64,000 bases of DNA, taken from the NCBI RefSeq assembly GCF_043584775.1, contig NZ_CP121327.1, positions 1,394,400 through 1,458,399 on the forward strand. The letters are read 5' to 3'. The notes beneath the pieces were generated by a model that made no database searches, was not told where the DNA came from, and was given only the letters and a program-made list of their open reading frames with translations. Source of the DNA: Hyphobacterium sp. Its GTDB lineage: Bacteria; Pseudomonadota; Alphaproteobacteria; Caulobacterales; Maricaulaceae. Positions 36,585-54,019 of the stretch are shown here, in pieces. Every line of letters starts with the position of its first letter. Position 1 is the first letter of the stretch. The position numbers and the translations under genes were made by a program.

Positions 36585-36640
36585 AGGAAATGGCGCGAGT
36601 GACGGGACTCGAACCCGCGGCCTCCGGCGTGACAGGCCGG
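36585..36640 (-). repeat. Island-distal att repeat: 56-bp direct repeat containing the 3'-terminal 50 nt of tRNA-Asp (non-functional partial copy)
   Basis: 36585-36640 is identical base-for-base to 53964-54019 (checked by hand). Identity ends at 36641 (t) versus 54020 (c). It covers the tRNA acceptor 3' strand, the T-arm and part of the anticodon stem only. Confidence 0.9.
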
Positions 36641-36759
36641 TGAAACGTCAAAGATTTCAATACAGCGTTCCGACAAAATGGTCGGAAATCGGGGCTCTTT
36701 GCAGTTTCAGACAGGCTTGAGTCGGAACACGGAAAAACGTTTGAACGGCATCGTCCAAT

Positions 36760-37269
36760 CTATTGTTGCCAAGAAAGCCGCTCGTCGCTTCCCGGTGAAA
36801 TGGCCGCAACTTCTAACCGATATCGGATGCCCGGATTTGTGGATTCGATCTCATCCGACAATTCAATGACCCAATTGGTATTCTCCAAGCCCGCTTGTGC
36901 GGCGAAAACACTGAGAACTTGAATCGCCTCGGCCTCGTTCAATGCAACGATCCGTGCATCGACAAATTCACCTTGATCGACGCCAGACTGCATCATCGTT
37001 TCCAGCAATGTGCAGGCTGAAAGACGCGCCTGCATGATGATATCAGTTCCGTGCCCTGCCCATTGTTGGACGCCATAAATACTTGGTGCAAAACAGTTCG
37101 AGCCTTCGCTGCTTAAATAGACGATATCCGGCTCATACTCGGCAGCTGTATTGATCCCTTCTTGCCGAATGATATCGAGCCATCGCTCGTCATCAGCTGC
37201 TGCCTGTGACGGAAATACGACCACCATGCTGGCAACAAGGAACCAACCGACCTTTAAAACCAAACCCAT
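36760..37269 (-). CDS. Hypothetical exported protein
   Basis: The start is taken at MGLVLKVGWFLVASMVVVFPSQAAADD (signal peptide), with GGAG 8 nt upstream of ATG 37269. It lies downstream of the RHH-TM gene. No recognisable domain. Confidence 0.6.
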   Translation of the reverse strand: MGLVLKVGWFLVASMVVVFPSQAAADDERWLDIIRQEGINTAAEYEPDIVYLSSEGSNCFAPSIYGVQQWAGHGTDIIMQARLSACTLLETMMQSGVDQGEFVDARIVALNEAEAIQVLSVFAAQAGLENTNWVIELSDEIESTNPGIRYRLEVAAISPGSDERLSWQQ

Positions 37270-37297
37270 TGCGACGCTCCATTCTGCATCCGTCCGC

Positions 37298-37969
37298 TTA
37301 TTCCTCGGCCGCAACCAGCGCGGGCCTTAAACTAATAGAGATTAATCCCGCGTCTTCGCTGCCAGTGTCCAACCTCGACAATGACCCAATTCTTGCCCGC
37401 ATCACCTGATCGAAAATCACACGCCGTTCGCTGCTCTCTTCGTCAACCAAGATGAATTGAACTGTGTAGACGAGATGCTCTCCTTCGGGGGCTTCAATGG
37501 CCGACACTGTTACCCAAAGAGCGGCATCTTCCGTATATGAAGCATCAACAAGCCCCGTTCCGAAAACGGCTTCTAACGCTGGACGAAACCGAGTGAAGCG
37601 GATGCCATTCTGCTCACCGAAATCATGGCGAATACGAGCATCCATCATGGCGCGGTTTTGTGTATCAGAGACCGCGGCGACCATCACACTGATATCAGTT
37701 TCCAATTGGGTGGCGGAAGCCTGTTGTGTTGAGTTTGAGCCGAACGCCATGAACAGAAGGGCAATCCCGACTATCATGCCTAAACCGTAGAATGGGGCAC
37801 GAGAACGCTGACGTGCGTTAATGCTGGGAGAAAGATATCCATCAATCAGTTCTCGAACGACCGCACTGGTGGACTTTCCTTCGCGCGTTGCTGCCCGCGC
37901 CAATTCCGATTTCTTGCTGGGCGAGATGCGTATTTCAACGCCTTCTGTCTTCTTATCGTCTTCGCTCAT
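37298..37969 (-). CDS. Membrane-anchored ribbon-helix-helix (CopG/MobC-like) protein with a periplasmic C-terminal domain
   Basis: The start is taken at MSEDDKKTEGVEIRISPSKKSELARAATREGKSTSAVVRELIDGYL (beta-strand plus two helices, typical RHH). A TM helix APFYGLGMIVGIALLFMAFG follows, then an unassigned domain of about 140 aa. It has the same architecture as 50828-51490. Confidence 0.6.
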   Translation of the reverse strand: MSEDDKKTEGVEIRISPSKKSELARAATREGKSTSAVVRELIDGYLSPSINARQRSRAPFYGLGMIVGIALLFMAFGSNSTQQASATQLETDISVMVAAVSDTQNRAMMDARIRHDFGEQNGIRFTRFRPALEAVFGTGLVDASYTEDAALWVTVSAIEAPEGEHLVYTVQFILVDEESSERRVIFDQVMRARIGSLSRLDTGSEDAGLISISLRPALVAAEE

Positions 37970-38194
37970 GGCCGCCCCTAAGGAATCAAAATCAGTGACT
38001 GATTGAAAACTCGTGGAAGATATCGACCTCATGCAAGGAAAACCGTGTCCCGACATTACAGGTCTGAACTAAATGCGGCCTTTAGCCGTGCCGCCAGCTA
38101 AGCCTCAGTCTCATGACTTCCGTGAATAATTCGAGGACAAGCTCAAGGAAGCCATGCGGACAGCTGACGCGAGATTGTTGAATGGATGATCGTG

Positions 38195-52319: not shown

Positions 52320-53243
52320 TTAGTAGAGTCTGTTCGCCTTTCTTTCTGGTTTTGGTTCAAGGTTCAAGGCCCGGTGAGCGGAGCCCATGCGTAGCTCAGG
52401 CGAACCGGGCCGGTGTTTGCGGGTTTGCTGGGCGTAGATGACCGGGGCCAGCCCTCCCAGCGAGGTGTGGGGCCGGCAGGTATTGTAGTCGATCCGCCAA
52501 GCCTCGATCAGGGTTCGCGCTTCGGAGAGTGACGAGAACAGGTGCTCGTTCAGGCACTCGTCCCGCAGGCGGCCATTGAAGCTCTCCACGAAGCCATTCT
52601 GCTGGGGCTTTCCCGGGGCGATGTAATGCCATTCGACACCGCGCTCTTTCTGCCAGCGTAGGATGGCGTGGCTTGTCAGCTCCGTGCCATTGTCCGAGAC
52701 GATCATGGCCGGCTTGCCGCGCCGGGCGATGATCCGGTCCAGTTCCCGGCCCACGCGCACGCCCGAGAGCGAGGTGTCGACCGTGATCGCCAGTGCTTCA
52801 CGGGTGAAGTCGTCCACCACGCACAGGGTGCGGAAGCGACGCCCGTCGGTAAGCGCATCCGCCACGAAGTCCAGGCTCCAGCGCTGGTTGGCGCCGCTCG
52901 GCAGCAGCATGGGACGGCGCGTTCCCGTGGCCCGCTTGCGGCCCCGGCGTCGGCGTACCGCCAGACCTTCCTCGCGGTAGATACGGTAAAGCTTCTTGTG
53001 GTTCGCATTCAGCCCCTCCCGGGCCAGAAGAATGCCCAGACGGCGATAGCCGAAGCGGCGACGTTCGCCAGCCAGGTCGCGCAACCGCTCACGTAGACGC
53101 TCATCGCCCGCATCGCGCTTGCGATACTGGAAGGTCGAGCGGTCCAGCCGGACCAACCGGCACGCCCGACGCTCGCTCAGCCCGTGCGCCTCCACCAGGT
53201 GACGCGCGACCCGCCGCTTCACATCGGGCGTTAGAAGTTTTTT
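52320..53243 (-). CDS. IS3-family transposase OrfB (DDE/RNase-H catalytic domain), expressed as an OrfAB fusion by -1 frameshifting
   Basis: After a -1 slip at AAAAAAC the frame reads [31 protein letters not shown]...NQRWSLDFV...[11 protein letters not shown]...[23 protein letters not shown] (D, D, E region). The part of the 402-aa track ORF upstream of the slip site is not expected to be translated. Confidence 0.9.
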
Positions 53244-53497
53244 GAGGCGAGATCCTTCAGCGCCGCATTGTCCAGCATCTGCTCGGCCAGTAACCGCTTC
53301 AGCTTGGCATTCTCTGCTTCCAGCGTCCGTAGACGCTGAGCATCCGACACCGTCATGCCGCCGAACTTGGCCTTGTACTTGTAAAAGGTCGCGTCCGAGA
53401 TGCCGTACTTGCGGCATAGCTCCTTCGTCGTGACACCCGCTTCGTGCTCGCGGAGCATCCCGATAATCTGTTCTTCCGAATAACGGCTCTTGCGCAT
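53231..53497 (-). CDS. IS3-family transposase OrfA (HTH)
   Basis: 88-aa [91 protein letters not shown], with a leucine zipper. The slippery heptamer A-AAA-AAC lies at 53243-53237. Confidence 0.92.
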
Positions 53498-53558
53498 CGT
53501 CCATCCTCTTCTCGATGGACTCTACCATCCCGTGGCCGGAATTCAGGGGGCTGGGTCA

Positions 53559-53906
53559 ACAGCTGATGAGCCCATCATCCGGATGCGATCTGGTACACCA
53601 TATAAAAACAAAGACACTTTCGCGAAAGACTTCCGAAAAGTTCGAAACCTTGCATTCAAAGCCGACGTTCGGACCTTCAAGGACATACGCCGATCAGGCA
53701 ATCTCGAGGCAGACTTGGGCGATGCATCAGCGGAAGATCGAGCGGAGATTCTTGCTAACACCCTTCATAAGAGCGGGTATCTTGAAGCCACTTATACACC
53801 GGCCACTGTAGCCCGCGGAAAAAAGATTCGGGACAACCGGGCTGCCGGCCGCGCCCTGCTCGAGGCCGAAAAAAAAGCCAAGAGTCGGAACGATGATGAG
53901 AAATAG
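53559..53906 (+). pseudogene. Tyrosine integrase, C-terminal ~115 codons only (5' part removed at the IS junction)
   Basis: Beginning exactly at the IS right end the frame reads TADEPIIRMRSGTPYKNKDTFAKDFRKVRNLAFKADVRTFKDIRRSGNLEADLGDASAEDRAEILANTLHKSGYLEATYTPATVARGKK.... The FKDIRRSG (HxLRR-box position) and ATY (catalytic Tyr region) layout fits the C-terminal catalytic domain. The position next to the tRNA att site is typical. Confidence 0.65.
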
Positions 53907-53963
53907 AGTCGGAACGAGTCGGAATGGAGCGCGCCACTTCCTGCATATTATTGATTTTATTGC

Positions 53964-54019
53964 AGGAAATGGCGCGAGTGACGGGACTCGAACCCGCGGC
54001 CTCCGGCGTGACAGGCCGG
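53964..54019 (-). repeat. Island-proximal att repeat (56 bp) lying within and just beyond the 3' end of the intact tRNA-Asp
   Basis: Identical to 36585-36640. It comprises the 50 nt of the tRNA 3' part plus 6 nt downstream. Confidence 0.9.

Follow-up and report, generated by a model that had tools for sequence, protein, structure and literature searches.

Islands that tyrosine integrases have inserted into tRNA or tmRNA genes are catalogued by Islander (PMC4383910). The element described here is a 17.3-kb genomic island in a stretch of 64,000 nucleotides from Hyphobacterium sp. (contig NZ_CP121327.1, positions 1,394,400 to 1,458,399; the whole stretch is hereafter called the window and numbered from its first letter). 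It resembles the catalogued islands in its split target transfer RNA (tRNA) gene, the regenerated gene, the displaced 3' fragment at the far end, the integrase beside the tRNA, the foreign composition and the empty site found in a relative, and it differs from them in that its integrase is cut to the last 113 residues, most simply by a deletion associated with an insertion sequence (IS). A class of attB sites reaching from the anticodon loop as far as the CCA end has also been described (bioRxiv 10.1101/2020.11.02.365908), and the identity block found here likewise runs from the 5' base of the anticodon stem through the CCA and six further nucleotides. We consider it very probable that the island was inserted into tRNA-Asp(GTC) of this marine Hyphobacterium (Maricaulaceae, Alphaproteobacteria) by a lambda-type tyrosine integrase and later lost its integration module in an IS-associated event. 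Insertion by a tyrosine integrase at a tRNA 3' end had been proposed in a first-pass annotation of the sequence, and it is supported by the repeat, the empty site, the composition and the integrase family. As a textbook tRNA-borne genomic island in decay, the element is real, well supported and ordinary. The mildly novel part is an integrase clade that is invisible to Pfam, specific for tRNA-Asp and equipped with conserved candidate arm repeats, with defence cargo in sister islands.

The junctions of the island and the tRNA genes beside it are as follows.
36552-36582, minus strand: rho-independent terminator, native to tRNA-Asp before the insertion and now beside the displaced fragment (direct folding and synteny with locus L001)
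36585-36640, minus strand: integrase-distal junction core (attR by convention), displaced tRNA-Asp nucleotides 28-77 plus 6 nt
53964-54019, minus strand: integrase-proximal junction core (attL by convention), within the regenerated tRNA-Asp
53970-54046, minus strand: intact tRNA-Asp(GTC) (ARAGORN; Rfam 74.2 bits), whose 3' 50 nt come from island DNA
54366-54441: tRNA-Val (ARAGORN, Rfam)

Both island ends carry a perfect 56-bp direct repeat (36585-36640 and 53964-54019, 56 of 56 positions identical, BLAST E 1.8e-22), and the bases adjoining the two copies differ. Within the window, either half of the repeat is present two times and no more, and the similarity reaches 64 bp if two mismatches are allowed. 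As the first-pass annotation had read it, the repeat consists of the last 50 nt of tRNA-Asp(GTC) and of 6 nt downstream. The 50 nt are nucleotides 28-77 of the tRNA, which begin with the first 5' base of the anticodon stem and end with the encoded CCA. The element is therefore bounded by an intact tRNA and a displaced 3' fragment, and neither ARAGORN nor Rfam called a tRNA at the copy at 36.6 kb. The terminator native to the tRNA had been expected beside this partial copy. On the minus strand, 36552-36582 indeed forms a GC-rich hairpin of 13 bp with U6 behind it (free energy -21.3 kcal/mol, z -4.9), and none of 200 shuffled sequences was as stable. This hairpin was found by direct folding and received no call from a consensus pattern-based terminator scanner. 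No further internal copy of the att core was found in the window by BLAST, so a tandem accretion of two islands was ruled out.

With regard to composition, the DNA between the repeats had been judged by eye to be more AT-rich than flanks of roughly 60% GC. Calculation gave a GC content of 0.519 between the repeats (0.509 if the IS is left out) compared to 0.594 and 0.589 in the flanks, and the mean GC content at third codon positions (GC3) was 0.51 for 18 island open reading frames (ORFs) and 0.71 for four flanking genes. Both composition and codon usage of the island hence differ from those of the host.

The uninterrupted site was found in a related genome when the flanking AlaDH-like gene was used as a query across one genome per species. 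The closest relative, PFFX01000034.1 (locus L001, labelled as a metagenome-assembled genome of Rhodobacterales), shares 91% amino-acid identity in the AlaDH-like protein and approximately 83% identity in the flank DNA. It is collinear with both window flanks, from Lon to tRNA-Val on one side and from AlaDH and beyond on the other. Here, tRNA-Val (8153-8228) is followed by tRNA-Asp (8723-8799), the same terminator hairpin stands directly after it, and the AlaDH-like gene begins 149 bp later at 8949. The empty site predicted beforehand, in which 36584 is joined to 54020 and tRNA-Asp leads into the terminator and the AlaDH-like gene, thus exists in this genome.

In Hyphobacterium sp. CCMP332 (complete genome CP058669.1, locus L081), the same locus holds a different island of 6.7 kb, bounded by a 64-nt repeat of 98% identity. 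The order is AlaDH-like gene, repeat, island, tRNA-Asp, tRNA-Val, PDT, Lon and ClpX, and the island contains two Exo_endo_phos proteins, a 557-aa protein, an IS6 transposase and an intact 400-aa integrase that reads towards tRNA-Asp. The flanking proteins are 91-98% identical between the window and CCMP332 (PDT and Lon 98%), and no cargo gene is common to the two islands. On the DNA level, identity reached 82% for the 3' end of the integrase, 85% for the attL arm and 79% for the attR arm, with 88% for the AlaDH-like gene and 87% for its intergenic region.

What is left of the integration module lies between the cargo and tRNA-Asp.
51558-51977, minus strand: 139-aa protein of the conserved island core, with homologues at L084 5600-5971 (E 1e-12) and L089 3230-3565 (E 5e-4)
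52182-52289, minus strand: C-terminal end (35 codons) of a gene of AlpA/HTH_17 (excisionase-like) type, truncated by the IS (synteny; its translation ends KVWKPSEIEAWAAG...)
52291-53558, minus strand: intact IS3-family element of 1268 bp with 16-bp perfect terminal inverted repeats TGACCCAGCCCCCTGA
53559-53906, plus strand: tyrosine integrase remnant, residues 288-400 of a 400-aa protein (homology to full-length relatives)

The integrase beside the tRNA had already been recognised as a C-terminal remnant. Only the last 113 of approximately 400 residues are present; the DIRRSG and TY motifs are kept, and the domains for arm binding and core binding are missing together with the first half of the catalytic domain. 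The annotated ORF at this place (53490-53906, plus strand) is 100% identical to a 138-aa 'hypothetical protein' (P0001) that GenBank lists for Hyphobacterium sp. It is chimeric: the TTG start and the rest of the first 23 codons belong to the right end of the IS, from which the frame reads out into the remnant; only 53559-53906 is foreign to the IS. An exhaustive HMMER search with the remnant returned 273 relatives at E<=1e-3, of which the full-length ones measure 370-430 aa, and the remnant aligns to their last ~110 residues. A word-indexed protein search found, besides the remnant itself, one short fragment only, and neither Pfam (E<=10) nor NCBIfam matched the remnant. Over residues 288-400 only, identity is 81% to the CCMP332 integrase (P0155, HXX25_04275) and 74% to a second full-length relative, P0003. 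When full-length members were compared with the window by tblastn, they matched with residues 288-400 alone, starting within 6 bp of the IS end, and no other integrase part and no second family member was found anywhere in the 64 kb. The intact arrangement, with the integrase gene inside the element and beside the regenerated tRNA, is seen in CCMP332 and five other loci.

Most members of this family are labelled 'hypothetical protein' in GenBank and have no Pfam domains; distant members carry PF22022 and PF00589, and the distant P0211 passes PF00589 with 28.1 bits at a cut-off of 27.1 bits. A family profile searched against the sequences of the Protein Data Bank (PDB) matched integrase N-terminal domains (2khq, E 9e-5) and no catalytic domain, and P0211 alone gave nothing meaningful. 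The AlphaFold model of P0003 (mean predicted local distance difference test score, pLDDT, 86.6) was compared with PDB structures as well. It matched full-length lambda Int (1z1b) at E 4.6e-10 over 373 columns, and the 72 PDB matches at E<=1e-3 included Tn1549 Int, XerA, XerH, IntI and Cre. The tyrosine-recombinase fold, with core-binding and catalytic domain, was accordingly seen on the model of this full-length relative and not on the remnant itself. Since the P0003 model aligns with full-length lambda Int, a heterobivalent integrase (1z1b, 1z1g, 5j0n), the remnant is regarded as the C-terminal quarter of a lambda-type tyrosine integrase. In the family alignment (A4, P0003 numbering), F310, R314, R323, D327, R329, R330, E335, N352, Y364 and R379 are invariant. 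The resulting motifs are an invariant DxRRS...N...TY and a nearly invariant RxKT (R255/K257). R329/R330, Y364 and R255/K257 fit the Arg II, Tyr and Lys of the active site; the His II position varies, and the third-box position is Asn352.

Short repeats occur on both arms of the surviving att sites.
36641-36729: att arm on the side away from the integrase; GTCGGAA-type repeats lie at 36681 and 36721 (direct) and, inverted, at 36668
53883-53925, plus strand: three direct AGTCGGAAY repeats, candidate arm-type integrase sites, one within the final codons of the integrase (KSRN), two immediately past the stop codon

The motif AGTCGGAAY has five matches in the window where 0.9 are expected, and four of the five lie at the island ends. 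The copies stand approximately 40 nt from the tRNA end. The triplet is found at the same place in seven of nine related loci of the close clade; in L089 and L090, two copies are exact and the third is degenerate. On the other side, the first ~90 bp inside the junction (36641-36729) are the sole island-internal DNA shared with the CCMP332 island, at 79% identity. In their arrangement, the short direct and inverted AGTCGGAAC repeats, which flank the core on both arms as candidate sites, resemble the P and P' arm sites of lambda. As the P0003 model has a lambda-like N-terminal domain, the AGTCGGAAY repeats are good candidates for arm-type sites, and the conserved AGTCGGAAC repeats on both arms would probably serve as arm sites.

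The related loci also reveal the target of the family. tRNA-Asp is the direct 3' neighbour of the integrase in L081, L082, L088, L089 and L091 and stands within 2 kb of it in L092, and the contigs L083, L084 and L085 end inside the tRNA-Asp 3' end just after the integrase. All integrated members that could be checked sit at tRNA-Asp, and because their integrases share this target at identities of 40-81%, the choice of tRNA-Asp characterises the family as a whole. Those integrases that are closest to the remnant (58-81% identity) are all found in small non-phage islands with a common core, in the order small protein, AlpA, ~370-aa protein, 90-aa protein and integrase. L086, L087 and L092 carry phage-like genes. 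A metagenome scan seeded with the alignment of the close-clade integrases returned one locus.

Two sister islands contain defence genes. The cargo of L083 (1-9400) is a Dpd 7-deazaguanine DNA-modification cluster (DpdG, DEAD helicase, QueC, PTPS, radical SAM and two DndB), and that of L084 (1-2262) is a type I restriction-modification (R-M) system. Judged from these gene contents, the island family can apparently carry defence systems. The further proposal is that these proteins form an unannotated clade of lambda-like, arm-binding tyrosine integrases with non-canonical active-site motifs, dedicated to tRNA-Asp(GTC) across marine and freshwater Alphaproteobacteria. Such a clade would move small islands, some with Dpd, type I R-M or PDC-S19 genes, would also serve phages, and would have been overlooked by standard integrase-based island finders. 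This proposal is tentative as a whole. Since Pfam does not recognise the family, an integrase-based island finder that uses Pfam would probably miss this island and its intact relatives. A profile built from the family could recover elements that island and defence-system surveys now miss.

In L091, a sequence of ~104 nt is present in four to five repeats (65-79% identity) in intergenic DNA at 2004-6246, in the island upstream of the integrase P0016.

Decay of the integration module had been noted before. Absent from that first reading were an intact IS3-family element as the cause of the truncation and a candidate AlpA-type excisionase gene cut at the other IS edge, and likewise the two serine recombinases and the PADLOC defence candidate of the cargo. 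The IS has TG...CA ends, 16-bp perfect inverted repeats and the orfA/orfB pair of the IS3 family, with orfA (53231-53497, HTH_Tnp_1), the DDE-type orfB (to 52320; rve, rve_3) and, in their overlap, an A6C slippery site (53243) for a -1 frameshift. By its orfA sequence and end motifs, it resembles the IS407 group. Its composition is host-like (GC 0.636, GC3 0.70), and it matches IS3 transposase genes annotated on plasmids of Alphaproteobacteria with 75-78% identity; in a megablast of the island against plasmids, nothing matched except the IS. No 3-4-bp target-site duplication was found (the flanks are cttg and acag), and the two sides of the IS are unrelated genes on opposite strands, the integrase from codon 288 onward on the right (plus strand) and the end of the AlpA-like gene on the left (minus strand).

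The AlpA-like fragment shares the pattern [RK]xWxxx[ED][VI]xxW, the position and the strand with HTH_17/AlpA genes of L084 and L089. Such a small DNA-binding gene accompanies the integrase in the relatives, which is a further likeness to the lambda-type system. At 35 codons, the fragment was too short for a match to profile hidden Markov models (HMMs); Pfam at E<=10 and NCBIfam gave none, and tblastn against the related loci gave nothing significant. In related islands, the AlpA-like gene invariably has the gene of the 139-aa protein just downstream of it. In L084 and L089, a conserved core of 4.5-5.7 kb extends from the AlpA-like gene to the integrase; it comprises the ~370-aa protein, small ORFs and an ORF of 90 aa that overlaps the start of the integrase. 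Because no target duplication was found and unrelated sequences are cut at both IS edges, which is the usual footprint of IS-associated deletions, the simplest reading is a deletion of this kind, by which the AlpA-like gene lost its 5' part, the core genes disappeared and the integrase was shortened by 287 codons. No second IS copy, which would tell an adjacent deletion from a recombination between two copies, was found in the window.

The following course of events would explain the locus. In the attP site, the tRNA would have been present as a partial copy, beginning at the anticodon stem, ending at the CCA and extended by a few bases, and recombination within this copy would have regenerated the complete tRNA at the integrase side and moved the original 3' 50 nt, together with the native terminator, to a distance of 17.3 kb. 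Since the identity block starts at the anticodon stem, the anticodon loop is by analogy the probable place of the crossover. The IS3-family element would have arrived later, and either an adjacent deletion or a recombination between two IS copies would have deleted all DNA between the AlpA-like gene, whose 5' part was lost with it, and codon 288 of the integrase, a region of ~4.5-5.7 kb in intact relatives. Self-excision would have been lost at this step, with two att sites and the AGTCGGAAC arm repeats left intact. As such, the locus is a clean example of an insertion sequence immobilising an island through the loss of its integrase/excisionase module while both att sites persist, and it is useful for the annotation of this Hyphobacterium genome.

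Several points weigh against this explanation and have to be set beside it. A significant match to the catalytic profile PF00589 was found neither for the remnant nor for its closest full-length relatives (P0003, P0155 and eight others). Compared to lambda Int, sequence identity is 16-19%, and neither the HxxR His nor the third-box (LGH) His/Trp is conserved in the family alignment (DIRRSG...LAN...TY). The usual Arg I position is occupied by W/E, and a canonical Arg I could not be mapped onto the alignment. Given that Pfam does not recognise the family and that its motifs are non-canonical, membership in the catalytic family would rest on the modelled fold and transitive homology. Likewise, the fragment at 52182-52289 is a candidate AlpA-type excisionase by 35 residues, a motif and synteny. 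Finally, the DNA identity of the island ends to CCMP332 (79-85%) is close to that of the flanks (87-88%), so instead of a recent acquisition, the insertion may be an old one that was inherited vertically and in which the cargo turned over.

This last point leads to a variant in which one ancient insertion in the common ancestor with CCMP332 gave rise to both islands, and the 17.3-kb and 6.7-kb cargos arose in place via IS, resolvase and deletion. Apart from the similar divergence of island ends and chromosome, it would fit the presence of an IS beside the integrase in both islands (IS3 here, IS6 in CCMP332) and the signs of rearrangement in both. However, the identity of the island ends is somewhat below that of the flanks, the 81% amino-acid identity of the integrase is far below the 98% of PDT and Lon, and the two islands have no cargo gene in common. 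Furthermore, the family is clearly mobile: Dpd, type I R-M or phage cargo accompanies it in unrelated settings, and its site is tRNA-Asp in every case, so repeated independent capture at a hot spot is equally plausible. A single ancient insertion is hence possible, and we lean away from it.

For the insertion and later loss of the module, the removal of the integration and excision genes implies that the island no longer excises with its own proteins. The first-pass annotation had concluded that the element is probably locked in place, which stands for self-mobility. It is less certain as a general statement, as both att sites and the arm repeats are intact and might allow excision in trans. 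In this alternative, a related full-length integrase and an excisionase encoded elsewhere in the genome would excise or move the island. The perfect state of both 56-bp cores and the conserved arm repeats on both sides agree with it, and cross-recognition is plausible, as the integrases of the clade share arm motif and target. Nevertheless, no second family member was found within the 64-kb window, and tRNA-Asp, the sole known target of the family, is already occupied at this locus. Mobilisation in trans is therefore unlikely.

The island might also be the stump of a prophage or phage satellite from which structural and replication genes were deleted. A deletion at the IS is demonstrable, and some distant family members have phage surroundings: P0160 is found in 54-kb contigs with S24 repressor, lysozyme and DUF1064 genes, and P0161 beside GapR, FtsK_gamma and DUF5131 genes. 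The island itself speaks against this origin. In Pfam and PHROGs scans of the island ORFs of at least 100 aa and three smaller ORFs, no capsid, portal, tail, terminase, lysis or replication family was detected, and a megablast of the island against 50,697 phage records returned no match. Additionally, the closest integrase relatives all belong to the non-phage islands with the common core. We regard a phage stump as highly improbable. Pfam and NCBIfam revealed no relaxase or type IV secretion system (T4SS) family either, with no search aimed at an origin of transfer. The island thus shows the hallmarks of neither a prophage nor an integrative and conjugative or mobilizable element, just as the first-pass annotation had concluded from the lack of capsid, tail, terminase, relaxase and T4SS genes.

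The weakest alternative, an assembly artefact or local duplication around a native low-GC block, which the first-pass annotation had itself raised as an assembly duplication, is practically excluded, because at this locus the independent complete genome CP058669.1 shows the repeat in the same arrangement with another island inside it, the sequences flanking the two copies are unrelated, the exact empty junction exists in a relative and GC3 differs by 0.20.

Apart from the integration module, the island consists of three cargo blocks and the genes between them.
36760-41327, minus strand: cargo block 1, a 184-aa protein (hydrophobic N-terminal stretch), a ribbon-helix-helix (RHH) protein, a 307-aa protein, endonuclease I and a 449-aa protein
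37298-38056, minus strand: RHH protein with a hydrophobic segment, weak RelB/Arc-like matches
39191-39925, minus strand: endonuclease I (Pfam Endonuclease_1, E 3e-27)
41643-42830, plus strand: DUF3644 protein (Pfam, E 2e-51), candidate single-gene defence of PADLOC type PDC-S19 (E 2.1e-113, residues 87-394)
42917-43534, plus strand: serine recombinase (resolvase/invertase) with complete catalytic and helix-turn-helix (HTH) domain and no in-frame start (Pfam Resolvase, 1-145 of 145, E 4e-39)
43497-45647, minus strand: cargo block 2, a paralogue pair of 175 aa and 150 aa and a DUF6624 protein (44012-44968)
46064-46717, minus strand: intact serine recombinase (Resolvase and HTH_7, Pfam E 1e-44), 37% identical to 42917-43534
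46989-51490: cargo block 3, a repeat protein, a 143-aa hydrophobic protein, a DUF6624 protein (47891-48556), an esterase, a DUF6624 protein (49916-50689) and an RHH protein
46989-47327, plus strand: 112-aa repeat protein whose RR-containing N-terminus (SRRSFLTRVAG...) resembles a twin-arginine signal, no family match
48662-49885: esterase of cargo block 3
50813-51490, plus strand: second RHH protein with a hydrophobic segment, paralogue of 37298-38056

A defence-type match was found in one of ~18 cargo genes. The DUF3644 protein matches the PDC-S19 protein model of PADLOC, and its gene is a candidate defence gene by sequence. In this respect, the island resembles defence islands in the same way as its sister islands with Dpd (L083) or type I R-M (L084) genes. 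It differs from defence islands in that most of its cargo consists of likely exported proteins to which no function is assigned. Several cargo proteins form sets of divergent paralogues in pairwise comparison, among them the three DUF6624 proteins (44012-44968, 47891-48556 and 49916-50689). Many cargo translations, read by eye, begin with hydrophobic, signal-peptide-like N-termini, and several of the paralogues are likely exported; endonuclease I is probably exported as well. The other proteins of block 1 (184 aa, 307 aa and 449 aa) matched no family. In the 112-aa protein, the N-terminus is followed by three copies of the repeat DSDTG..DRAGYGR, encoded by a 44-nt DNA repeat family (D1).

The serine recombinase at 42917-43534 reads from an ATA codon, and the only nearby ATG ATG (42899) is out of frame, near a CCCC run (42899-42930). 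It is probably a pseudogene or the product of a sequencing frameshift. Around both serine recombinases, a search for hix-like inverted repeats of the invertase type gave nothing convincing, and an invertible segment is therefore not claimed.

The RHH proteins at 37298-38056 and 50813-51490 are divergent paralogues (26-27% identity); one lies close to each end of the cargo, and both point outwards. Each has an N-terminal RHH-like segment, one putative membrane-spanning hydrophobic segment and a C-terminal domain of ~140 aa. If the membrane anchor is real, this would be an unusual architecture for an RHH protein.

Beside the island, a second small indel was observed. The 1.3-kb segment 34019-35312, which codes for a multi-pass membrane protein of 407 aa (ORF 34021-35244 on the minus strand, without a Pfam match), is missing from CCMP332 (L081) and L001, whose flanks join directly. 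In CCMP332, in turn, a 78-aa GIY-YIG ORF (L081 11672-11908) lies between tRNA-Asp and tRNA-Val at 11579-11984. It is bracketed by two copies of a 40-70-nt repeat, 332-335 nt apart, and is missing from the window; ORF and repeats may form a small mobile cassette.

Further away from the island, the AT skew is persistently high (+0.14 to +0.26) at 13000-21000, over ~8 kb of long minus-strand ORFs and well above the rest of the window. Lastly, a hairpin-containing element of ~118 nt occurs in copies of 80% identity directly 3' of tRNA-Val (54254-54370) and 3' of tRNA-Leu (63299-63414) and recurs in part at 63202-63254, which suggests an intergenic repeat that accompanies tRNA genes.

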